Shown: piece after piece, positions 1,343 to 44,544 of the stretch
Numbering within the stretch: the stretch's first letter is position 1
Layout of the letters: each line of letters starts with the position of its first letter
Origin: Escherichia phage EC120
Length of the DNA stretch: 44,544 nucleotides
Sequence record: ON185580.1
Reading direction: 5' to 3' (one strand)
Made by a program: the position numbers and the translations under genes
The notes under the pieces: model-generated
What the model was told of the DNA's origin: nothing
The model's database searches: none
What the model saw: the letters and a program-made list of their open reading frames with translations, nothing else

Positions 1343-1696
1343 ATGGCTATGTCTAATATGACTTACTCTCAGGTTTACAACACCGCTCATGCTGCATTAG
1401 TTGAACGTATCTGGAATGATGCTATTGATTGTATTGATAACGCACATGATGCAATCCATGATGCGGCGGATAGTGCTGTACCAATCTATTATGCTGACAT
1501 CTTCTCCGTGATGGCGAGTGAAGGAATTGATCATTTCTTCGAAGACTCCGGCCTGATGCCAGACACTAAGGATGTAACCGTAGTATTGCAAGCCCGTATC
1601 TATGAGCAACTCACAATTGATCTATGGGAACGTGTTCAGTATATGATTGTTGAATACGTCAACTCCGCCGAATATTTAGAAGAAGAAGAGGAATAA
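1343..1696 (+). CDS. ocr: Ocr-like DNA-mimic anti-restriction protein (T7 gp0.3 homologue, 117 aa)
   Basis: Translation MAMSNMTY...[13 protein letters not shown]...[11 protein letters not shown]...[15 protein letters not shown]... with acidic C-terminus closely matches recalled T7 Ocr (same length). GAGGA RBS 8 nt before ATG 1343; track start 1328 is less likely. Confidence 0.85.
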
Positions 1697-1698
1697 GA

Positions 1699-1812
1699 AT
1701 GGAAAAGCTATACAACTTCATCTTTTCAGACGGTGTAACCCTGAAGTGTTCCCTACGATTCGCTCAGATTCGTGAGGAAGTGCTAGGTACTACATACAAA
1801 CTATTTAGCTGA
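1699..1812 (+). CDS. Small hypothetical early protein (37 aa)
   Basis: ATG 2 nt after ocr stop with GAGGA RBS; same position as T7 gene 0.4. Confidence 0.3.
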   Translation: MEKLYNFIFSDGVTLKCSLRFAQIREEVLGTTYKLFS

Positions 1813-1825
1813 CACTATAAGAGAA
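1803..1825 (+). promoter_or_regulatory. Variant phage-RNAP promoter-like sequence (ATTTAGCTGACACTATAAGAG)
   Basis: Matches the SP6-type promoter except A instead of G at the expected +1; may be weak or non-functional. Confidence 0.35.
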
Positions 1826-1888
1826 GTCTTAACAAGGCGTTGCTACGGTAGCGCCTGATTAAACTTTCACTTACTAGAGGTTAAAATT

Positions 1889-2014
1889 ATGAAACTATCG
1901 CCATCCGCTAAAGGCCTCATTGCAGAACTTAAAGACTCTTTGAGGAATCCAATCATTTGGGCACTTATCTACATACCTTATGGTATCTACCTATTTCACC
2001 TCATCACTGAGTAA
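1889..2014 (+). CDS. Small hydrophobic early protein (41 aa)
   Basis: GAGG RBS; predicted TM segment IIWALIYIPYGIYLFHLI. Confidence 0.3.
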   Translation: MKLSPSAKGLIAELKDSLRNPIIWALIYIPYGIYLFHLITE

Positions 2015-2048
2015 ATAGCCTATAGCCTACCTATGTGGGCTATGTGAT

Positions 2049-2071
2049 ATTTACTTACACTATAAGGTGAT
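2049..2071 (+). promoter_or_regulatory. Divergent phage promoter-like sequence (ATTTACTTACACTATAAGGTG)
   Basis: Shares the ATTTAC and CACTATA blocks but has altered spacing and TATAAG; low confidence. Confidence 0.25.
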
Positions 2072-2075
2072 TAAT

Positions 2076-2999
2076 ATGACTACTGAAAACATCCTTCTGT
2101 CTGTTCGTGAAGCTGCAACCGCTGAAATCAAGCAGCACTTAGACAATATCGGCACTTCTTACATCAAAGTTGGCGCTTGTCTGAATGAATTACGCGGTGA
2201 TTTCGAAGGTCAAAAAGACTTTTTAGCTTATGTAGAATCAGAGTTCGGCATCAAGAAAGCACAATGCTACAAGCTGATGAGTGTAGCCCGTGTCTTTGAA
2301 GGAGACGAACGCTTTAAAGGTGTGGCTATGCGTGTAATGCTGGCGCTTGTTCCTTTCGCTGATGAAAATATGATCATGGAGAAGGCCGCAGAACTCGCCG
2401 CAGAGGGCAAGCTGGACACTAACGCCGTAAACGCCCTGATTGATCCTAAGAAAGAGACAAAGGCCGAGACGGTACAACCTAAGGTTGAGTCGGTAAAACC
2501 GCAGGAGAACGCGACTGAGGCCGCAGAAACTATGCAAGGACATGCAACCTTTGAGGATTTCATATTAGAGAAGGCGAAAGAGGAGCTACAAAGTGTGCCG
2601 CCAGCAAGTGAGTCTGGTAACGACGAATCCGCACCGTGGGAAGACAAAAGCAAGCAGGAAGACACAAAGGCAGCGCCACGGGATAACACGGCTAACACCG
2701 AGAGTGCCGCTATTGCTGGCCTTCTGGCACAAATTAAAGCACTGACCGAGCAATTACAGGCAGCTAATGACCGCATTGCCTCCTTAAGCAGCACACGCGA
2801 AAGCAAGAAAGCAGCCGCGCCTATGCTGCCGCAATTCAAATCTTCCTGCTTCTATGCTCGCTTAGGTTTAAGCGCTGAGGAGGCAACGAAGAAGACAGCA
2901 GTTAACAAGGCACGCCGCGAACTGGTTAAGCTAGGCTACGGCGAAGGCCATGAAGCATGGCCCTTAATCTCTGAGGCAGTAGAAGAATTAACTAAGTAA
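2076..2999 (+). CDS. Early protein of unknown function (307 aa) directly upstream of RNAP
   Basis: AAGGTGA RBS 5 nt before ATG 2076 (track start 2067 is GTG). Globular N-terminal region, low-complexity K/E/T/A-rich linker, conserved-looking C-terminal 60 aa. Occupies the T7 gene 0.7 position but has no recognisable kinase motifs. Confidence 0.7.
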   Translation: MTTENILLSVREAATAEIKQHLDNIGTSYIKVGACLNELRGDFEGQKDFLAYVESEFGIKKAQCYKLMSVARVFEGDERFKGVAMRVMLALVPFADENMIMEKAAELAAEGKLDTNAVNALIDPKKETKAETVQPKVESVKPQENATEAAETMQGHATFEDFILEKAKEELQSVPPASESGNDESAPWEDKSKQEDTKAAPRDNTANTESAAIAGLLAQIKALTEQLQAANDRIASLSSTRESKKAAAPMLPQFKSSCFYARLGLSAEEATKKTAVNKARRELVKLGYGEGHEAWPLISEAVEELTK

Positions 3000-3062
3000 C
3001 CTTATCGGTGGCATCTTCTTAGGTGTCACCTATTAAGGTTTCTTTCACTAGGAGTAAACAAG

Positions 3063-5690
3063 ATGCAAGACCTACACGCTATTCAACTTCAACTTGAAGA
3101 AGAAATGTTTAACGGCGGTATCCGTCGCTTTGAAGCGGACCAACAACGCCAGATTGCATCCGGTAATGAATCAGACACGGCATGGAATCGCCGCTTATTG
3201 TCCGAGTTAATCGCGCCAATGGCTGAAGGTATTCAGGCATACAAGGAAGAGTATGAAGGTAAAAGAGGCCGTGCACCGCGTGCATTAGCTTTCATTAACT
3301 GCGTAGAAAACGAAGTGGCAGCATATATCACGATGAAAATCGTTATGGATATGCTGAACACGGATGTAACTTTGCAGGCTATAGCCATGAATGTAGCTGA
3401 CCGCATTGAGGACCAAGTACGTTTTAGCAAGCTGGAAGGTCACGCCGCCAAATACTTTGAGAAAGTTAAGAAGTCACTTAAGGCAAGTAAGACTAAATCA
3501 TATCGCCATGCGCACAACGTAGCGGTCGTGGCTGAGAAGTCAGTAGCTGACCGTGACGCTGATTTCTCTCGCTGGGAGGCGTGGCCTAAAGATACCTTGC
3601 TACAAATTGGTATGACCTTGCTAGAAATACTGGAAAATAGTGTATTCTTCAATGGTCAGCCTGTCTTTCTTCGCACCTTGCGCACTAATGGTGGCAAGCA
3701 TGGCGTTTACTACTTACAGACTAGCGAACACGTGGGTGAATGGATAACTGCATTTAAAGAGCACGTAGCTCAGCTGAGTCCAGCCTATGCGCCTTGCGTT
3801 ATTCCTCCTCGTCCGTGGGTTTCTCCGTTTAATGGTGGCTTCCATACTGAGAAAGTAGCAAGCCGTATTCGTCTAGTAAAAGGCAATCGTGAGCACGTCC
3901 GCAAGCTGACCAAAAAGCAAATGCCAGCGGTTTACAAGGCTGTTAACGCTTTGCAGGCGACTAAGTGGCAGGTTAATAAAGAGGTTTTGCAGGTAGTAGA
4001 GGACGTTATCCGTCTCGACCTTGGTTATGGTGTGCCTTCCTTTAAACCACTCATCGACCGTGAGAACAAGCCAGCTAATCCAGTGCCGTTAGAGTTCCAG
4101 CACCTGCGAGGCCGTGAATTGAAAGAGATGCTAACACCGGAGCAATGGCAGGCCTTCATCAACTGGAAGGGTGAATGTACTAAGCTGTATACCGCTGAGA
4201 CTAAGCGCGGCAGCAAGTCGGCGGCGACCGTCCGCATGGTAGGACAGGCCCGTAAATACAGCCAGTTTGACGCTATTTATTTTGTATATGCACTGGATAG
4301 CCGTTCACGCGTTTATGCGCAATCTAGCACGCTCTCGCCGCAATCAAACGACTTAGGCAAGGCATTGCTCCGTTTTACCGAAGGGCAGCGTCTTGATAGC
4401 GCTGAGGCGCTTAAGTGGTTTTTGGTGAACGGGGCGAATAACTGGGGTTGGGATAAGAAAACTTTTGACGTGCGCACCTCTAACGTGCTGGATGGCGAAT
4501 TTCAAGACATGTGCCGCGACATTGCAGCCGATCCGCTGACCTTCACTCAATGGGTAAATGCTGATTCCCCTTACGGCTTCCTTGCATGGTGCTTTGAATA
4601 TGCGCGTTATCTGGATGCACTGGATGAAGGCACGCAAGACCAATTCATGACGCACCTACCCGTCCATCAAGACGGTAGTTGCTCTGGTATCCAGCACTAT
4701 AGCGCGATGTTACGCGATGAAGTAGGTGCGAAAGCAGTAAACCTTAAGCCTTCTGACTTCCCTCAAGATATTTATGGCGCGGTTGCGCAGGTTGTTATCC
4801 AGAAGAATTACGCCTACATGAATGCAGACGATGCAGAGACTTTCACATCTGGAAGCGTCACACTTACAGGTGCAGAACTGCGTAGCATGGCTAGTGCGTG
4901 GGATATGATAGGAATCACTCGCGGATTGACCAAAAAGCCCGTAATGACACTACCTTATGGCAGCACACGTCTAACCTGCCGTGAATCAGTGATTGATTAT
5001 ATCGTTGATTTGGAAGAAAAAGAGGCCCAACGAGCTATTGCGGAAGGGCGTACCGCCAATCCTGTACATCCTTTTGATAATGACCGTAAGGACAGCCTGA
5101 CACCTAGTGCAGCTTATAACTATATGACGGCTTTAATCTGGCCTTCTATTTCGGAAGTGGTTAAAGCTCCTATAGTGGCAATGAAAATGATTCGTCAGCT
5201 TGCCCGTTTCGCAGCTAAAAGGAATGAAGGCTTAGAGTATACCTTGCCTACTGGCTTCATCTTGCAACAAAAGATTATGGCTACTGATATGCTCCGCGTA
5301 TCCACTTGCCTGATGGGAGAAATCAAGATGAGTCTACAGATTGAAACGGACGTAGTGGATGAAACGGCTATGATGGGCGCTGCTGCTCCTAACTTTGTGC
5401 ATGGTCATGATGCCAGTCACCTTATCTTAACAGTCTGCGACCTTGTTGATAAAGGGATTACATCTATCGCAGTCATTCATGATTCTTTCGGTACTCACGC
5501 AGGCCGTACAGCCGATCTTCGTGATAGCTTAAGGGCAGAAATGGTGAAGATGTATCAAGGCCGTAATGCCCTGCAAAGCCTGTTAGATGAGCATGAAGAA
5601 CGCTGGTTAGTAGACACCGGAATCCAAGTGCCAGAGCAAGGAGAGTTTGACCTTAACGAAATCTTAGTATCTGACTATTGCTTCGCATAA
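3063..5690 (+). CDS. Single-subunit DNA-dependent RNA polymerase (SP6-type)
   Basis: 875 aa; N-terminus [32 protein letters not shown] and C-terminus ...[10 protein letters not shown]...FA align by recall with SP6 RNAP; catalytic [14 protein letters not shown] and VIHDSFGTH motifs present. Confidence 0.97.
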
Positions 5691-33800: not shown

Positions 33801-34156
33801 ATTTGGAAGAGAAGTTATCGCCTAAAGGGTTGGCCTTTGGTGCAATGGGTATGATGAGTACAACTGCTGTATTTAGTCTAGGTGGAGATTTCTTAGGTGG
33901 CCTAGGTGTTCTACCTTCTGAGTTAGTACAATCCCGTTATGAGGCTGGCTTTCAGACTAAGGGTTTGATAGACCAAATACCACTAGTAGGTGTTGGTCAA
34001 GATGCATATCGTTTAGCAGATTCTATAACTAAATACGCAGAGGGTGATACAGAAGGTGTAGATGTGGCACGTAGGGCTTTACGCTTAGTGCCTCTAGCTA
34101 ATGTAATAGGAATCCAGAACGCATTGCGTTATGGCTTAGATGAACTGGAGGATTAA
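30848..34156 (+). CDS. Large internal virion (ejection) protein (gp16-like)
   Basis: 1102 aa; GGAGGA RBS; last and largest of the internal virion protein genes. Confidence 0.75.
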   Translation: MEQDIKTNWAGYVQSTPEPFSIEAAPVSAPTIRQRNELQEQVLEAKADADILGAVGAAFQNEWLAFGGKRWYDRATADFTPQPDFEIQPEQREALRFKYGTDMMQTITEGVRSEDELNFRIQNADEDLERNKRIAQAGWVGSVATIGAAVLDPVGWVASIPTGGAAKVGLVGRAVRSAIAAGVSNAAIESILVQGDMTRDLDDIMVALGSGMAMGGVIGAVARGRATKLSEQGDDRAASIVRSADAGDRYVRAVADDSIGAMRVKGEEVLTEGAFDISSKGEGLLKTLQREGNAIDMTPRRWAGTLSALGTVVHSSQDASVRGLGARLFESPQGLGMQKASASLMQNTNLNRLKSADMNRFNDGFDLWLKENNINPVAGHTNSHYVQQYNEKVWEAVRIGMDESTPKSIRMAAEGQQAMYREALALRQRSGESGFEKVKADDKYMPDIFDSMKARRQFSMHDKEDIIELFSRAYQNGSRKVPKEVADDIARAQVNRVADATLTGQLSFEKAMSGQTKAEYEALMRKAGFSDEEIEKMVEALDNKETRDNISNRAKMSLGLDVTQEYNGIRMRDFMNTNVEELTDNYMKEAAGGAALARQGFSTYQAALNAIDLVERNARNAAKDTKAHAQFEAESAKIRQSEPDYKKAQEKIEELKKRLKLKEKDEAAGLAIDEEIRQMREGLRLIMGKSIDSNPQDLSTKMLRRGRDITGVLRLGQMGFAQLGELANFMGEFGIAATTMALGKQFRFTSKALRNGDGFFRDKNLAEVERMVGYIGEDNWLTTKGARPDEFGDVTTVRGMMAHFDQSMNSIRRAQTNLSLFRMAQGSLERMTNRQIALSFIDHLEGKKIIPQKKLEELGLTQEFMTNLQKHYDANSKGSGLLGFDTMPYAMGETLANAIRRKSGLIIQRNFIGDEGIWMNKALGKTFAQLKSFSLVSGEKQFGRGIRHDKIGLAKKTAYGFALGSIVYAAKAYVNSIGREDQDEYLEEKLSPKGLAFGAMGMMSTTAVFSLGGDFLGGLGVLPSELVQSRYEAGFQTKGLIDQIPLVGVGQDAYRLADSITKYAEGDTEGVDVARRALRLVPLANVIGIQNALRYGLDELED

Positions 34157-35118
34157 TGAGTTATACTTTCACAGAACATATAGCCAACGGTACGCAAGTA
34201 ACCTATCCCTTTAGCTTTGCTGGTAGGGATAAAGGTTATCTTCGTGCCTCAGATGTGATAGTGGAGTCTCTTCAAGGTAACACTTGGATTGAGGTTACAT
34301 CTGGCTGGCAACTAACTGGCACGCACCAGATTACTTTTGATGTAGCACCAGTTGCAGGTTTGAAGTTCCGTATTAGAAGGGAAGTACAAAAGGAGTATCC
34401 ATACGCTGAGTTTGACCGTGGTGTTACCTTGGATATGAAGTCTTTAAATGGTTCTTTCATTCATATACTGGAGATTACACAGGAGTTACTTGACGGGTTT
34501 TATCCAGAAGGATACTTCATTAAACAGAATGTAAGCTGGGGCGGCAATAAGATTACTGATTTGGCTGATGGCACAAATCCGGGAGATGCAGTAAATAAAG
34601 GGCAGCTTGATGCCATCGACAAGAAGCATACAGATTGGAACGCCAAACAGGACATTGAGATTGCTGGCCTTAAGGCTGGTATGACTTCTGGTATTGCGCA
34701 CAGAACTGTTCCTTGGTACACGATAGCCCAAGGTGGTGAGATTTCCGTAAAACCACCTTATGAATTTCAAGATGCACTAGTTTTCCTTAATGGGGTGTTG
34801 CAGCACCAAATTGTAGGCGCATACTCTATAAGCAACAACACTATCACTTTCGCAGAGCCGCTTGTGGCTGGTACAGAGGTGTATGTGCTGATTGGTAGTC
34901 GTGTGGCTACATCTGAACCTAATATTCAGTTAGAGTTGAACTTTGACTTAGTAGAAGGCCAACAAGTAGTACAGATTGGCTCTGCATTTAAGTACATTGA
35001 GGTCTACCTTGATGGATTATTACAACCTAAACTTGCTTATCAGGTAGACGGTGACATTGTTACTTTCTCAGAGGGAGTGCCAGAATGCCGGATGACTGCT
35101 AAGATTATCACAGCATAA
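34156..35118 (+). CDS. Tail-fibre/tailspike adaptor protein (T7 gp17 N-terminal domain-like)
   Basis: N-terminus TYPFSFAGRDKGYLRASDVIVESL...FRIRREV resembles the tail-attachment domain of T7 gp17; no long fibre shaft. Confidence 0.65.
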   Translation: MSYTFTEHIANGTQVTYPFSFAGRDKGYLRASDVIVESLQGNTWIEVTSGWQLTGTHQITFDVAPVAGLKFRIRREVQKEYPYAEFDRGVTLDMKSLNGSFIHILEITQELLDGFYPEGYFIKQNVSWGGNKITDLADGTNPGDAVNKGQLDAIDKKHTDWNAKQDIEIAGLKAGMTSGIAHRTVPWYTIAQGGEISVKPPYEFQDALVFLNGVLQHQIVGAYSISNNTITFAEPLVAGTEVYVLIGSRVATSEPNIQLELNFDLVEGQQVVQIGSAFKYIEVYLDGLLQPKLAYQVDGDIVTFSEGVPECRMTAKIITA

Positions 35119-35127
35119 GGAGGTAGG

Positions 35128-35352
35128 ATGATTAACTCCGAACTGGTAGATAGTGGTGTGAAGCTTGCGCCACCTGCACTCGTATCAGGTGGGTACTTCC
35201 TCGGTATCAGTTGGGATAACTGGCTCGTAATTATGACCCTTATTTACACAGTAATGCAAATGGGTTGGTTTATTTATGAGAAGGTCCAGACTATAAAGAA
35301 GAGGAGAAAAGCTAAATGTACTCAGAAGTTGAAAGAGCAGGATACATCATAA
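35128..35352 (+). CDS. Putative holin (T7 gp17.5-like, 74 aa)
   Basis: AAGGAGG RBS; one strong TM (WLVIMTLIYTVMQMGWFIY) and a basic C-terminus; same relative position as T7 holin. Confidence 0.5.
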   Translation: MINSELVDSGVKLAPPALVSGGYFLGISWDNWLVIMTLIYTVMQMGWFIYEKVQTIKKRRKAKCTQKLKEQDTS

Positions 35353-35747
35353 GAGAAGATGGTGTTATCTTGAGCAAGAAGGGACAGCCGATGGTTGGTG
35401 CTATTCGTGAAAGAGGATACCGCACAGTAACATTAAGGATAGATAATAAATCCAAGACTTATAAAGTACATAGGTTGATTGCATGGAAGCATGTGCCGAA
35501 CCCTCATAACTATAAGGTTGTTAACCATAAAGACCGCAACCCATCTAATTGCCATAAAGATAACCTAGAGTGGTGCACTCAACAGGAAAACACTATACAT
35601 GCACACTATGGTTGTCTTGACATACAAGATAAAATAGATGAAGCCAAAGCATTAAGAAGCCAAGGCTGGTCTTATCCTAAAATCGGTAAATACTTTGGGT
35701 TAGACCATAAGACTGTTTGGTATTGGATTAATGGGAGAAGAACTTGA
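35316..35747 (+). CDS. HNH homing endonuclease (copy 1)
   Basis: HNH signature VNHKDRNPSNCHKDNLEW...QQEN; overlaps holin 3' end and small terminase start. Confidence 0.7.
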   Translation: MYSEVERAGYIIREDGVILSKKGQPMVGAIRERGYRTVTLRIDNKSKTYKVHRLIAWKHVPNPHNYKVVNHKDRNPSNCHKDNLEWCTQQENTIHAHYGCLDIQDKIDEAKALRSQGWSYPKIGKYFGLDHKTVWYWINGRRT

Positions 35748-36043
35748 GCGTACATAACAAACATGCAGCTACAGAAGACGAGGTTGGCATTCTGCATGGT
35801 GCTATTACCAAAATCTTCAATAAGAAAGCACAGGCAATACTGGACACTATAGAAGAAGACCCTGATGCAGCACTGCATTTAGTGTCTGGTAAAGACATTG
35901 GAGCTATGTGTAAGTGGGTTCTTGATAACGGCATTACCGCCACACCTGCTGCACAGCAGGAAGAATCCAAGTTATCTAAGCGCCTCAAGGCTATCCGAGA
36001 GGCATCCAGTGGCAAGATTATTCAGTTTACAAAAGAGGAGTGA
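35744..36043 (+). CDS. Putative terminase small subunit (TTG start)
   Basis: 99 aa directly upstream of large terminase; no in-frame ATG near the 5' end; GGAG 8 nt before TTG 35744. Confidence 0.45.
   Translation: MSVHNKHAATEDEVGILHGAITKIFNKKAQAILDTIEEDPDAALHLVSGKDIGAMCKWVLDNGITATPAAQQEESKLSKRLKAIREASSGKIIQFTKEE
35835..35857 (+). promoter_or_regulatory. Phage promoter-like sequence inside small terminase gene
   Basis: CAATACTGGACACTATAGAAGAA; 3 upstream mismatches to the consensus. Confidence 0.45.
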
Positions 36044-36044
36044 T

Positions 36045-36488
36045 ATGCATAGATGGTGTGAATCTCAAGGTTATACCATCTTACCTTCTGGTGTCATCCT
36101 TTCAAAGGGTGGCACCCCTCTCAAACCATTCAAGGCGGGTAGGGGTTATTTAGCAGTTAAAATTAAAAATAAAGAAGGTAAATGGCGTAATGTCTATGTT
36201 CATCAATTAGTGGCTTATAAATATTTACCTAAAACTAATAATGAAGTAAACCACAAAGACGGCGATAAGCACAACAATGATGTTAGCAACTTGGAGTGGG
36301 TAACAAGAAGCGAGAATAACTATTTAAAATGCAATGGAAATGATAGGAGTGCCTTAAATAGCTATTTAGCAAGATTAAAAGATTGCTTCTTGCAAGGTAA
36401 GGGTGTAGCAGAAACCGCTAGACTTACTGGTAAAAGTGAACCAAGAGTTTCTTCTCTCTTTAAGGAGTGGCGAAATGGCAAAGGCTAG
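36045..36488 (+). CDS. HNH homing endonuclease (copy 2)
   Basis: GAGGAG RBS then ATG 36045; VNHKDGDKHNNDVSNLEW...RSEN; clearly paralogous to copy 1; overlaps large terminase start. Confidence 0.75.
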   Translation: MHRWCESQGYTILPSGVILSKGGTPLKPFKAGRGYLAVKIKNKEGKWRNVYVHQLVAYKYLPKTNNEVNHKDGDKHNNDVSNLEWVTRSENNYLKCNGNDRSALNSYLARLKDCFLQGKGVAETARLTGKSEPRVSSLFKEWRNGKG

Positions 36489-40033: not shown

Positions 40034-40056
40034 ATTTACTGGACACTATAGAAGAG
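40034..40056 (+). promoter_or_regulatory. Phage-RNAP promoter upstream of tailspike genes
   Basis: ATTTACTGGACACTATAGAAGAG; expected +1 G at 40051. Confidence 0.75.
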
Positions 40057-40135
40057 ATAAGATAGCGCCGTTCTTTTGAGCGGCCTATTACTAGCCAATC
40101 TTCATAGGGAGGGTTGGAAAGTAATAGGAGATAGC

Positions 40136-42034
40136 ATGGCTAAATTAACCAAACCTAATACTGAAGGAATCTTGCATAAAGGACAATCTTTGTATGAGTA
40201 CCTTGATGCGAGAGTTTTAACATCAAAGCCGTTTGGTGCTGCAGGTGACGCCACTACTGATGATACGGAGGTTATAGCTGCTTCATTAAACTCTCAGAAA
40301 GCTGTCACAGTCTCAGATGGTGTATTCTCTAGCTCTGGTATTAATAGTAATTACTGTAACTTAGACGGTAGGGGTAGTGGCGTGCTAAGTCACCGTTCCA
40401 GTACAGGTAACTACTTAGTATTTAACAATCTACGTGCAGGTCGCTTAAGTAATATTACGGTAGAAAGTAATAAGGCGACTGATACAACTCAGGGACAGCA
40501 GGTATCTCTTGCTGGTGGAAGTGATGTTACTGTAAGTGACGTTAACTTCTCAAACGTTAAAGGTACTGGTTTCAGTTTAATCGCATACCCTAATGATGCG
40601 CCACCTGATGGACTTATGATTAAAGGTATTCGAGGTAGCTATTCCGGCTATGCTACTAATAAGGCAGCCGGATGCGTACTTGCTGACTCCTCAGTTAACT
40701 CCCTCATAGATAACGTCATTGCTAAGAACTACCCTCAGTTCGGAGCAGTAGAGTTGAAAGGTACAGCAAGTTACAACATAGTCAGTAATGTTATAGGGGC
40801 AGATTGCCAGCATGTAACTTACAACGGCACTGAAGGGCCAATAGCCCCTTCTAATAACCTTATCAAGGGGGTGATGGCTAATAATCCTAAGTATGCAGCG
40901 GTTGTTGCAGGCAAAGGTAGTACGAACTTAATATCAGATGTGCTCGTAGATTACTCAACCTCTGATGCTAGGCAGGCTCATGGTGTTACAGTAGAGGGTT
41001 CTGATAACGTCATAAATAATGTGCTTATGTCAGGATGTGATGGTACTAACTCTTTAGGACAAGGGCAGACTGCTACAATTGCACGCTTTATAGGTACAGC
41101 TAATAACAACTATGCGTCTGTATTTCCTAGCTACAGTGCTACAGGTGTTATTACTTTCGAATCCGGCTCTACCCGTAACTTCGTAGAGGTAAAGCACCCT
41201 GGCAGGAGAAACGACCTTCTCAGTTCTGCTAGTACTATTGACGGTGCAGCTACTATTGACGGCACTAATAATAGTAACGTAGTGCACGCACCTGCCTTAG
41301 GGCAGTACATAGGTAGTATGTCAGGTAGGTTCGAATGGCGGATTAAGTCCATGTCACTCCCTTCAGGCGTTCTTACTTCTGCTGATAAGTACAGAATGCT
41401 TGGGGATGGTGCTGTATCATTAGCTTTAGGTGGGGGTACTTCTTCTCAAGTTCGCCTATTTACTTCTGATGGTACTTCTCGGACAGTGTCCCTCACCAAC
41501 GGTAACGTGCGTCTTTCTACCAGTAGCACAGGATATTTGCAGTTAGGTGCTGATGCAATGACCCCAGACAGTACTGGTACATACGCATTAGGTTCCGCCA
41601 GCCGAGCATGGTCTGGCGGTTTTACTCAAGCAGCGTTCACTGTTACCTCAGATGCTCGGTGTAAAACAGAACCTCTTACTATTTCAGATGCCTTACTGGA
41701 TGCTTGGTCTGAAGTTGACTTTGTGCAGTTTCAGTATTTGGATCGTGTTGAGGAGAAGGGTGCAGACTCAGCTAGATGGCACTTTGGCGTCATCGCTCAG
41801 CGAGCTAAGGAGGCTTTCGAACGTCACGGTATAGATGCACATCGCTATGGCTTCTTGTGCTTCGACAGTTGGGAGGATGTATACGAGGAAGATGCCGATG
41901 GCTCTCGTAAACTGATTACACCAGCAGGTTCCCGCTACGGTATTCGTTACGAGGAAGTACTGATATTAGAGGCTGCGTTGATGCGGCGGACTATTAAGCG
42001 TATGCAGGAAGCACTAGCTTCCTTGCCTAAGTAA
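40136..42034 (+). CDS. Tailspike 1: beta-helix polysaccharide depolymerase with C-terminal self-cleaving chaperone domain
   Basis: 632 aa from ATG 40136 (AGGAGA RBS). Beta-helix-like Gly/Ser/Asn/Thr-rich repeats; C-terminal ~128 aa begins SDARCK (Ser codon 41648-41650), matching the peptidase S74 intramolecular chaperone signature. Confidence 0.8.
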   Translation: MAKLTKPNTEGILHKGQSLYEYLDARVLTSKPFGAAGDATTDDTEVIAASLNSQKAVTVSDGVFSSSGINSNYCNLDGRGSGVLSHRSSTGNYLVFNNLRAGRLSNITVESNKATDTTQGQQVSLAGGSDVTVSDVNFSNVKGTGFSLIAYPNDAPPDGLMIKGIRGSYSGYATNKAAGCVLADSSVNSLIDNVIAKNYPQFGAVELKGTASYNIVSNVIGADCQHVTYNGTEGPIAPSNNLIKGVMANNPKYAAVVAGKGSTNLISDVLVDYSTSDARQAHGVTVEGSDNVINNVLMSGCDGTNSLGQGQTATIARFIGTANNNYASVFPSYSATGVITFESGSTRNFVEVKHPGRRNDLLSSASTIDGAATIDGTNNSNVVHAPALGQYIGSMSGRFEWRIKSMSLPSGVLTSADKYRMLGDGAVSLALGGGTSSQVRLFTSDGTSRTVSLTNGNVRLSTSSTGYLQLGADAMTPDSTGTYALGSASRAWSGGFTQAAFTVTSDARCKTEPLTISDALLDAWSEVDFVQFQYLDRVEEKGADSARWHFGVIAQRAKEAFERHGIDAHRYGFLCFDSWEDVYEEDADGSRKLITPAGSRYGIRYEEVLILEAALMRRTIKRMQEALASLPK

Positions 42035-42039
42035 GCAAC

Positions 42040-42064
42040 AGGCAGTGCGTAAGCACTGCTTTTC
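42040..42064 (+). terminator. Hairpin plus T-tract between the two tailspike genes
   Basis: Stem GCAGTGC/GCACTGC with GTAA loop, then TTTTC; probable partial terminator. Confidence 0.45.
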
Positions 42065-42119
42065 ACGCAACTTTTCTTAAAGGTTATCATGGTGGTAGCC
42101 TTTCAGAAAAGGAGGTTAC

Positions 42120-43832
42120 ATGCTTCAAAGATTAAGTGCTTACTTGGTGAAGTACAAGAGTAAACTAACAGGTACTATTGAGCGCCTGCTATCTGATAAA
42201 CTATCGGATACAATAGATGTTGCGGATTTTGGAGTTAATCCCTCTTCTAATGACAACAGGCAAGCCCTTCAAGCTGCATTCAATGCGGTCAGATTGCTAG
42301 GTGGTGGTACTGTATCAGTCACTAAAGCTGGCGAATATAAACTCAGTGGTACTGTTGAGATATTTGCTAATACACACTTCAAGGTTGCTAAAGGTGTAAC
42401 ATTTGTACGTGACTACGAAACAGGAGATACGCTATTCAGATTATCACAAGGGCAAGCTAGTAATGTAACAGTCAGTGGAGGTGTCTATGAAGGCAATGGT
42501 CACATTAAAGGAGATACACCTTTTGTAGTATTTGCATCTACTAGTAATAATGATTTGAAGTTTGAAGGCATAACAGTTAACAATGTAGTGGACTACCACG
42601 CCATAGATTTAGCAGATTGGAACAACGTAGTTATTCGTGATTGTAAATTCCTAGGGTTTAAGAATACAGGCAGTCGTAACTTCTCAGAGGCTATACAGTT
42701 AGACCCAGGACTTATTACAGTAGGTCGCTATGTGCAGTCTAGTGGTTTACTGGTAGAGAATTGCTATGCTGGCCCAAACCTTGATTCTGGATTTGGCGGG
42801 TATGGTGCTCTAGTAGGAAATCATGCATCAGCTTATGGTGTTCAAGATAACAACATTAGAATCCTAAATTGCACTACAGATGGTGCGCTCTTTGCAGGTG
42901 TACGTGTATTTAACTGGAAAAACTGGACAGTACGTGGTTGCACCTTTAGAAACTCTAATGCAAGAGGTGTTCATGTTACACCTGTCTCCTCTCAAACTAA
43001 ACCGCAAGGAACCAGACAAGGTAGTGTTGTAGATTGTACTTTTGATGGTGTAAGAACACCAGTGCTAATTGCTGCACCATCTTGGCCTTTTACCGATATT
43101 AGTGACATTTGGCATGACCATATTGAAATTTCTAATAATACTATGATCCTCACAGAGGATGTATCCTATGGTGTAGATGCAAGGTGGTGTAAGAATTTAA
43201 TTGTAAAAGGTAATACAGGCTCTGGTGGCTTAGGTTTAATCGGTTTACGCTTTGGGACAAAATACCACATCGAAGGTAATACTTGGGAAAACGGAAGAGG
43301 TAGTGGGATTTGGTTAGGTGAGTCTGATGCTACTACATTCATTGGTACGGGTTTATCAGGAGAAGGTATACTTAGTCGTAATATCTTCTCTAAATTAGGG
43401 CAATATGGTATTCATGTAAACTGCAAGGTTGGCGGTCTAGTGATTAAGGCTAATAATATGAAGGAAGTATCTACAGCTGAAGCAGGTAGGCACTTCATTA
43501 GCATAGACACAGGGGCTAACAACATCCTAGTAGAAGGTAATATTGGAGTAGATGGAGAAAGCCCTAACAAGCCAAGCCTTGGTATTCGTGTTACTTCTTC
43601 TTGTTCCAATATTAAACTCATTGGCAATGATTGCTATGGTACACAGGCGCCTCAGAATAACCAAGGAGTCGGTTCTAGTACGGTGATTGTTTATGGACTA
43701 AATGGCAATCCTACAACTTTAGGCGTAGGTGCACCTGTAGGCTCTTTAGCAACTGATATCAATGGGTCTGGTGGTAGTACATTGTACGTTAAAGAATCTG
43801 GTACATCTGCTCAAGGTTGGGTTGCAAAGTAG
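42120..43832 (+). CDS. Tailspike 2: right-handed beta-helix (pectate-lyase-like) protein
   Basis: 570 aa; AAAGGAGG RBS; N-terminal DVADFGVNPSSNDNRQALQAAFNAV...GGGTVSV typical of pectate-lyase-fold tailspikes; no C-terminal chaperone domain. Confidence 0.8.
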   Translation: MLQRLSAYLVKYKSKLTGTIERLLSDKLSDTIDVADFGVNPSSNDNRQALQAAFNAVRLLGGGTVSVTKAGEYKLSGTVEIFANTHFKVAKGVTFVRDYETGDTLFRLSQGQASNVTVSGGVYEGNGHIKGDTPFVVFASTSNNDLKFEGITVNNVVDYHAIDLADWNNVVIRDCKFLGFKNTGSRNFSEAIQLDPGLITVGRYVQSSGLLVENCYAGPNLDSGFGGYGALVGNHASAYGVQDNNIRILNCTTDGALFAGVRVFNWKNWTVRGCTFRNSNARGVHVTPVSSQTKPQGTRQGSVVDCTFDGVRTPVLIAAPSWPFTDISDIWHDHIEISNNTMILTEDVSYGVDARWCKNLIVKGNTGSGGLGLIGLRFGTKYHIEGNTWENGRGSGIWLGESDATTFIGTGLSGEGILSRNIFSKLGQYGIHVNCKVGGLVIKANNMKEVSTAEAGRHFISIDTGANNILVEGNIGVDGESPNKPSLGIRVTSSCSNIKLIGNDCYGTQAPQNNQGVGSSTVIVYGLNGNPTTLGVGAPVGSLATDINGSGGSTLYVKESGTSAQGWVAK

Positions 43833-43841
43833 TAGGATTGA

Positions 43842-43991
43842 ATGCCATTAATCAAATCAGTTAAGCAAAGTGCTGTACGCCAGAACACAGAAGAGCTTAT
43901 TCAATCAGGACGTGACCCTAAGCAAGCTTATGCCATTGCCAAGGCTGTACAACGTCGTGCCTTGAAGAAACCTTCTGCATCTTCTGCGTAA
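43842..43991 (+). CDS. Small basic protein (49 aa) at right end
   Basis: ATG 43842 shortly after tailspike 2; weak RBS. Confidence 0.35.
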   Translation: MPLIKSVKQSAVRQNTEELIQSGRDPKQAYAIAKAVQRRALKKPSASSA

Positions 43992-44002: not shown

Positions 44003-44485
44003 TCTTAGTGTACACAAGGGCAGACCTAGGTTTGCTCTTAGTGTATTTACAATGGAGGTCTTATGTATATACCTATGGAAGCACTAGTAGGTTGCCTGTG
44101 TTTGTTGGTAGGCTTCATTATAGGCTTAATAGCAAACCCTTAGTGTAATCCAAGGAGGTAACATGCAAGAAGAGAATTGGGATGTGTAATATTGGGTTTG
44201 GAGGAGGCTGAACCTTAGTCCTGTACAAGGATTAACCAAAGTCAAAATTTTGATATAGGCGTGTGTGAGGTGTCTCGCCCTCGCCCTCGCCGGATTTCCC
44301 CCATATGGGGCCGCGCTGCGGTTGGCTTGGGAATTGGGCTGGGCTGGTGGGCTGGGCTGGTCCGTCGTGGCCTAGGGCTTGCCGAGGTCTGCTCTTAGTG
44401 GCTGCACAAGGAGAACGCCTAGGAAGCGCTAGGGCACGCCTTAGTATTGGACAAGGTGATTGCCTTAGTTCAACCGCTTAGGGCT
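44003..44485. repeat. Right-end array of CTTAGT(G) repeats (at least 7 copies) flanking a GC-rich tandem-repeat core
   Basis: CTTAGTG-like motif at about 44004, 44037, 44140, 44214, 44394, 44440, 44464; same motif as the left-end array. Confidence 0.5.
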
Positions 44486-44544
44486 TACACGGGCCGTTTT
44501 AGGGCCATTCCTGAGCGTTTGACAGGGTGTGAGTGGGTGGGCTA

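Follow-up and report, generated by a model that had tools for sequence, protein, structure and literature searches.

The right-hand part of the genome of Escherichia phage EC120 (sequence record ON185580.1) carries two adjacent tailspike genes, the second of which is the subject of this report. The DNA analysed, hereafter the window, is a stretch of 44,544 nucleotides whose first 25 kb are 96-98% identical to LL11-like Vectrevirus genomes (K1-5 group, Autographiviridae). The window is therefore essentially one phage genome and, judged by its sequence, is a complete Vectrevirus genome of the K1-5 group. Within it, the open reading frame (ORF) at 42120-43832 is the second tailspike (spike 2) of a K1-5-like Vectrevirus, lying in the slot of K1-5 gp47, and the first tailspike (spike 1) is the known K5 heparosan lyase. 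The reading developed below, on balance a likely one, is that the two spikes confer a dual K5 and K2 capsule specificity. The gene of the gp47-slot spike is preceded by a structured spacer. The genes concerned, and the parts into which spike 2 divides, are as follows.

34156-35118, + strand: adaptor of the gp37 type, 320 amino acids (aa), carrier of both spikes on the tail (Pfam Phage_T7_tail match and identity to K1-5 gp37).
40136-42034, + strand: spike 1, K5 heparosan lyase, 632 aa (match to PDB 2x3h, Pfam, identity to K1-5 gp46).
42120-43832, + strand: spike 2, ATG start, 570 aa, TAG stop (ORF and ribosome-binding site).
42120-42233, + strand: N-terminal docking module of spike 2, residues 1-38 (alignment with K1-5 gp47).
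42210-43664, + strand: right-handed parallel beta-helix body of spike 2, residues ~31-515 (predicted structure).
42597-42824, + strand: conserved-centre segment of spike 2, with H160, D163, Q193, D195 and H235 and the motifs DYHAID, SEAIQLDP and GNHA (alignment of homologues).
43665-43832, + strand: small C-terminal domain of spike 2, residues 516-570, with the stop codon (model strands 521-569).

The spike 2 gene begins four bases downstream of a Shine-Dalgarno sequence (AGGAGG, 42110-42115). Its product has relatives at 97-99.5% aa identity in 22 GenBank phage records, and the ORF with its flanks is 95-99% identical in DNA to 21 records, the carriers being LL11, vKMB47, 101101UKE1, T147_P1/P9, LI10_P3/P5, G9, Sem1-4, 6948/6949 and EEc2/4. 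These relatives, together with a match to PHROG tail-spike family 2234 (5e-54), place the gene far beyond chance. An earlier note, made from the sequence alone, had proposed a 570-aa beta-helix protein here, following spike 1 but unrelated to it, and both points hold: the Pfam scan returns Beta_helix (1.7e-10) and NosD only, and the two spikes share no significant sequence similarity (BLASTP E value 0.34). Spike 2 was also correctly said to have no chaperone domain, as Pfam finds no Peptidase_S74 match in it, nor any Phage_T7_tail anchor or sialidase domain; NCBIfam gives no match at all. In the LL11 record the counterpart, CPT_LL11_053, is labelled 'tail spike protein, glycoside hydrolase domain'. 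It and its copies (97-99.5% aa identity) are the same gene in the same slot, with no difference in kind.

The partners of spike 2 are equally recognizable. Spike 1 matches the K5 lyase of PDB entry 2x3h over residues 1-505 (E = 0), bears a C-terminal Peptidase_S74 chaperone (PF13884, residues 505-565, Pfam) and is encoded by DNA 98.5% identical to K1-5 gp46. The adaptor has the features of its class, namely a length of about 300 aa, a T7 gp17-like N-terminal domain (residues 3-153, Pfam Phage_T7_tail, PF03906) and no receptor-binding domain, and is identical to K1-5 gp37 at 318 of 320 residues (99%). The role of such adaptors in bearing spikes has been described (PMC6872550, PMC6966330), and in K1-5 the lyase docks on the adaptor via the heptapeptide MAKLTKP and the second spike via the undecapeptide MIQRLGSSLVK (Leiman 2007, as quoted in PMC6872550). 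Both peptides have counterparts in the window: translation of spike 1 from 40136 opens with the exact heptapeptide, and the first 11 residues of spike 2, MLQRLSAYLVK, agree with those of K1-5 gp47 at seven positions. As in K1-5 and SP6, the spike genes are adjacent near the right genome end and are separated by a conserved spacer of ~85 bases. Since gene order, adaptor, docking peptides and spacer all agree, the SP6/K1-5 arrangement with a separate adaptor, which the earlier note had recognized, is the right reading. Spike 2 trimers would dock at the C-terminal site of the adaptor and the K5 lyase at the middle site, whereby each of the six tail vertices would bear both spikes. Such an architecture is textbook, and nothing new follows from it alone; the dual-spike, dual-specificity reading is correct but already known, having been proposed in the LL11 and vKMB47 papers, neither of which assigns a receptor to spike 2.

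The kinship of spike 2 with K1-5 gp47 stops soon after the docking peptide. Over residues 1-38 the two proteins are identical at 20 of 38 positions, and beyond residue 38 they have nothing in common; residues 1-28 are disordered in the monomer model described below (predicted local distance difference test, pLDDT, <50). Thus, the claim that spike 2 has no gp17-like anchor stands, but it overlooked a short docking module. The label 'distantly related to K1 endosialidase' that LL11 carries for this protein is rejected, because only the first ~38 residues are related; with the similarity so limited and no S74 or sialidase match in Pfam, spike 2 does not fall into the endosialidase class. The K1-5 gp37/gp46/gp47 system (also SP6, K1E) is of the same genus, with a 99% identical adaptor and the same K5 lyase, and it shares with the EC120 DNA the gene order, the spacer and the N-terminal docking peptides, as well as the logic of one phage for two capsule types (K1 or K5 strains). 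The body of spike 2, however, is unlike the gp47 endosialidase, lacking a beta-propeller and a C-terminal chaperone in a chain of 570 as opposed to 811 aa. It is instead a PfbA-like beta-helix, whose probable target is K2 where that of K1-5 gp47 is K1.

The spacer and its transcriptional setting comprise three further features.

40034-40056, + strand: SP6-type phage promoter ATTTACTGGACACTATAGAAGAG upstream of spike 1 (exact core ACACTATAG at 40043-40051).
42041-42060, + strand: spacer hairpin 1, an 8-bp stem with a GTAA loop, followed by a short T run (fold score, compensatory changes).
42071-42111, + strand: spacer hairpin 2, 5 + 11 bp with an internal loop (fold, compensatory and G-U changes).

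The 85-base spacer folds into these two hairpins with a z score of -6.1 against shuffled sequence. The earlier note had described a single hairpin with a T-tract. The hairpin is present, its stem formed by GGCAGTGC (42041-42048) pairing with GCACTGCT (42053-42060), but the T-tract amounts to just TTTT at 42060-42063, overlapping the last stem base, and the second, larger and conserved hairpin was missed. Hairpin 2 reaches into the Shine-Dalgarno sequence, whose first G takes part in its last pair. When nine phages from five genera are aligned, five pairs (three of hairpin 1, two of hairpin 2) show compensatory changes and several others G-U changes; the compensatory changes imply that the structure of the spacer, not only its sequence, is under selection. 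The spacer and the first ~18 codons of spike 2 retain 75-90% DNA identity in K1-5, K1E, SP6 and in Proteus, Citrobacter and Lelliottia phages, and hairpin 2 is kept in Vectre-, Zinder-, Acade- and Tuodvirus and in Justusliebigvirus alia. The spacer has no Rfam match, and the 85 bases are said to have been noted already by Scholl in 2001.

The single SP6-type promoter lies before spike 1, and no promoter core occurs on the + strand at 40052-43165, hence none between the spike genes, which are therefore co-transcribed. This absence of a promoter between the genes would suit a design in which the hairpins act mainly as a partial terminator, lowering expression of spike 2 relative to spike 1; the earlier note had likewise suggested that the hairpin it saw could govern how much of each spike is made. 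Hairpin 1 is G+C-rich, is followed by T residues, is annotated as a terminator in the LL11 record and shows compensatory changes. The idea is nonetheless doubtful. The T run is only 3-4 bases long and is lost in phD2B (CTACTT), a consensus scan of the + strand did not call hairpin 1, the spacer lacks an Rfam counterpart and equal numbers of the two spikes per virion are expected. Moreover, hairpin 2 is equally conserved and abuts the Shine-Dalgarno sequence, so that processing or translational control would fit as well. With a T run that is short and not conserved, any termination at hairpin 1 would be at best partial. Attenuation between the spikes is possible, and processing, translational control and a recombination seam are equally possible roles of the spacer. 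The structured spacer would be both a seam at which second spikes are swapped and probably an RNA-level control element.

In the 147-kb myovirus alia (MN850632, Justusliebigvirus), positions 5001-5077 hold the spacer with both hairpins, 77 bp at 87% identity to 42040-42116. This copy lies directly downstream of an unrelated tail-spike-like gene, alia_23, for which no relation to spike 1 or spike 2 was found. Its presence there suggests that spike genes travel as cassettes, spacer included, between widely differing phages.

The body of spike 2 was approached by structure prediction. An AlphaFold2 model of the monomer, built from an input alignment of 15 homologues (mean pLDDT 88; predicted template modelling score, pTM, 0.88), consists of a long right-handed parallel beta-helix, the type of body found in capsule-depolymerase tailspikes, and a small C-terminal domain. 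The helix is the receptor-binding and probably the enzymatic part of the protein. The C-terminal domain carries no autoproteolytic chaperone (no Peptidase_S74 match), and its motif GAPVGS...LYVKESGT..GWVAK is kept in homologues that have other N-termini. The 'pectate-lyase fold' of the earlier note is apt as a fold class but not as a family, for Pfam matches are to generic models and NCBIfam has none, giving no membership in a pectate or polysaccharide lyase family. Likewise, the structure prediction recommended there for finding the enzyme class does recover a beta-helix, but this fold alone gives no enzyme class.

The closest solved structure is that of PfbA from Streptococcus pneumoniae (PDB 3ZPP, 4MR0), at 19-23% identity. 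A significant sequence match and the conserved HAIQ / ESIQIEP / GTH centre place spike 2 in the PfbA-like beta-helix family, which is unclassified in CAZy (PMC3718772). Across the 15 aligned sequences, H160, Q193 and H235 never vary and E190 and D195 hardly do. Spike 2 residues H160, D163, Q193, D195 and H235 align with PfbA H293, Q296, Q331, E333 and H377, and it is this very site that the authors of the PfbA work singled out as a putative active centre, conserved and lying in a basic groove that would accommodate an acidic polymer. The centre of spike 2 matches no characterized catalytic mechanism. PfbA itself is a cell-wall-anchored bacterial adhesin without known enzymatic activity, to whose body plan spike 2 adds the docking peptide and the C-terminal domain.

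Outside Vectrevirus, the nearest relatives in cultured phages are tailspikes of Bacillus, Staphylococcus/Mammaliicoccus, Streptomyces and Arthrobacter phages. SPO1 gp18.3 aligns with spike 2 over ~470 residues (2e-38), with the common motifs D(Y/N)HA(I/L)D, DCKFLGF, SRN(F/Y)xEAIQLD and GNH, and in a viral structure library the next matches after LL11 are the Bacillus phages Moonbeam, Karezi and Finn. These spikes of phages with Gram-positive hosts (SPO1 gp18.3; Moonbeam, Karezi and Finn; more distantly phi29 gp12) have a homologous body at 25-30% identity but differ from spike 2 in their N-termini and virion context. One mutation in gp18.3 arose while SPO1 was adapting to a mutant lacking teichoic acid glucosylation; it is the only such adaptive mutation reported in this protein, whose activity is not established. 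Metagenomic and prophage homologues at 44-51% identity bear yet other N-termini, including the P22 head-binding (PF09008) and CBA120 TSP N (PF18668) domains. The association of one body with varied N-termini marks the beta-helix of spike 2 as a mobile receptor-binding module.

The receptor was sought in public host-range data for phages that bear the same spike 2. Half of the interaction matrix of Gaborieau et al. (bioRxiv 10.1101/2023.11.22.567924) and the accompanying strain table were analysed, and statements about the matrix refer to that half. In the strain table, LI10 is of sequence type (ST) 131, O25:H4, K2, and T147 of ST73, O6:H1, K5. Phages LI10_P3 and LI10_P5, with the K5 lyase and spike 2 (97% aa identity), come from a set isolated on the K2 strain LI10. 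The same pair of spikes occurs in vKMB47, which scores 4 on its propagating strain CFT073 (K2) and forms plaques with halos, whereas vKMB14, with the K5 lyase and another second spike, scores 0 on CFT073.

The Vectreviruses of the T147 set carry spike 2 (99% aa identity) and no K5 lyase, their first spike being a different 630-aa beta-helix. T147_P10 and T147_P9 lyse nine of 10 K2 strains; these nine belong to O1, O4, O75, O107, O25 and O6, apart from one that is untypable. When O6 and K5 strains are set aside, the two phages lyse seven of the eight strains with K2 as against 10 of 355 others (Fisher p = 1e-9). Of 17 O6 strains lacking both K2 and K5, they also lyse 14, irrespective of capsule, and this lysis is attributable to the first spike, which belongs to an O6 family: its relatives are found in Kayfunavirus T147_P5, Kagunavirus 536_P11, phiEB49 (host CFT073) and a phage of ATCC 25922, all from O6 hosts, ATCC 25922 being of serotype O6. 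The T205 and PDP21 phages, in which the K5 lyase is paired with different second spikes, serve as a control: they lyse K5 strains (and, in the case of the T205 phages, K7 strains) but no K2 strain in the matrix. From this contrast and the spread of O types, the K2 signal follows spike 2 and nothing else that these phages share. The dual host specificity foreseen in the earlier note is thus supported, if indirectly, with K2 as the second receptor, and host range makes it quite probable that spike 2 recognizes the E. coli K2 capsule. The first spike of the T147 Vectreviruses opens with MARLTRP and is encoded at 1603-3495 in the examined sequence of Vectrevirus T147P9 (OZ035733).

No paper in the searchable literature assigns this spike a receptor, nor was any characterized E. 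coli K2 depolymerase, K2-specific coliphage or K2-specific phage protein found there. One paper on K2 and phages (PMC12488582) does not concern phages of the EC120 type.

Several observations weigh against K2 as the receptor or against a catalytic role. Five of the K2 strains lysed by T147_P10/P9 give scores of 1 only (lysis at the top titre), and T147_P1 and T147_P7 score 0 on these score-1 strains though they too carry spike 2. The K2 strain NILS75 is not lysed at all. T147 phages, devoid of the K5 lyase, score 1-2 on eight K5 strains that are not O6, so the host range recorded in the matrix is not fully explained by the spikes. The K types of the matrix are in silico calls, and the columns of the LI10 phages lie outside the half analysed, which leaves their own host range out of the comparison. 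In the vKMB47 record (OR424385), an exact 55-bp tandem duplication (389-498 in the examined sequence, corresponding to EC120 42223-42277) frameshifts the spike 2 gene and splits its annotation into fragments. As 55 is a default SPAdes k-mer, the duplication is read as an untrimmed contig-end overlap and probably an assembly artefact; were it real, the vKMB47/CFT073 evidence would be weakened or lost. Finally, when PfbA was assayed on acidic polysaccharides it showed no lyase activity, nor could binding to glycosaminoglycans be detected, so that catalysis by spike 2 is not guaranteed. A separate feature of the matrix, which the two spikes do not explain, is a score of 1-2 on about twelve K1 strains, obtained with T147_P1 only.

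The chemistry of the proposed receptor suits the spike. K2 is a teichoic-acid-like polymer of galactosyl-glycerol-phosphate (Jann 1980 and Fischer 1982, as cited in PMC5974469 and PMC13171606). It fits the spike 2 family because the hosts of the relatives display teichoic acids. Spike 2 would bind the K2 capsule as its receptor, and the K5 lyase would serve K5 strains. K5 and K2 are group 2 capsules, of which a strain makes one or the other from its single kps locus, and the phage should consequently infect K5 or K2 strains, as K1-5 infects K1 or K5. More tentatively, spike 2 may degrade K2 in the groove of the helix, at the centre composed of H160, D163, Q193, D195 and H235, the bond cut being either phosphodiester or glycosidic.

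An enzymatic spike 2 is the somewhat favoured prediction over one that merely holds the phage on the K2 capsule without cutting it. Such a binding-only spike would resemble PfbA, which shares the conserved centre yet showed neither lyase activity on the acidic polymers tried nor a recognizable catalytic arrangement, and it would account for the lack of matches to curated enzyme families in Pfam and NCBIfam. It is nevertheless unlikely, as vKMB47 plaques have halos although the propagating strain CFT073 (K2) offers the K5 lyase no substrate, even distant phage homologues keep the His/Asp/Gln/Asp/His centre unchanged or almost unchanged, and the capsule-specific spikes of podophages are as a rule enzymes (PMC6966330). 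A more specific form of the enzymatic prediction makes spike 2 a polyol-phosphate (teichoic-acid-type) depolymerase that cuts the phosphodiester backbone of K2 via a His/His/acid centre. This proposal is speculative and, as it stands, improbable. If true, it would give the PfbA / SPO1 gp18.3 beta-helix family its first function, and the chemical likeness of their hosts' surface polymers would explain how a receptor-binding module came to pass between phages of Gram-positive and those of Gram-negative bacteria.

Slightly less probable still is the possibility that K2 is a mere correlate and that spike 2 recognizes a different surface glycan present in the same strains, be it an O antigen, a variant of the lipopolysaccharide core or another exopolysaccharide. 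The relatives at 44-51% identity bear PF09008 or PF18668 N-termini, which are typical of O-antigen-specific spikes, and the T147 phages lyse most O6 strains in addition to K2 strains. Yet the K2 strains lysed cover seven O-type classes. O6 is rejected as the receptor because the O6 class is accounted for by the different, O6-family first spike of the T147 phages, and LI10 is O25, not O6. O25 is rejected in turn because five O25 strains without K2 (ECOR-52, ECOR-54, ECOR-15, LM33 and NILS01) are unaffected in the matrix. Still weaker, and very improbable, is a scheme in which the two spikes act in sequence on one host, capsule first and then a second layer, rather than on alternative hosts: encapsulated extra-intestinal pathogenic E. 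coli do have both a capsule and an O antigen, and the T147 phages pair spike 2 with an O6-type spike on an O6 host, but the partner in EC120 is the K5 lyase, no strain offers K5 and K2 together, and the LI10 phages with the same spike pair were isolated on a K2 strain without K5.

What is new here, beside the known architecture, is the K5 plus K2 receptor proposal for EC120, the assignment of spike 2 to a family with a candidate centre and the conserved structure of both spacer hairpins. Among the capsules of extra-intestinal pathogenic E. coli, K2 is one of the most frequent, being found for instance in CFT073/ST73 and in some of ST131. If its specificity for K2 were confirmed, spike 2 would provide a typing reagent, a candidate anti-virulence enzyme beside those for K1, K5 and K30, and a ready-made module that could be inserted at the spacer seam to redirect K1-5-type phages. 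The beta-helix family that includes the pneumococcal adhesin PfbA would likewise gain a function open to testing.

Some minor features of the window lie outside the two spikes. HNH_3 endonuclease ORFs (PF13392) at 35316-35747 and 36045-36488 (E values 5e-9 and 3e-11) flank the small-terminase gene at 35744-36043. They look like homing-endonuclease insertions, since K1-5 and LL11 have no HNH genes at the corresponding positions. Directly after spike 2 comes a 49-codon ORF (43842-43991) that agrees in place and length (150 nt) with LL11 gene 054 and is equal in length to K1-5 gene 48. The window contains no terminal direct repeats of at least 60 bp. Its right end (44270-44544) is G+C-rich and bears the short tandem motifs CTCGCC (three copies) and GGGCTG (four copies).

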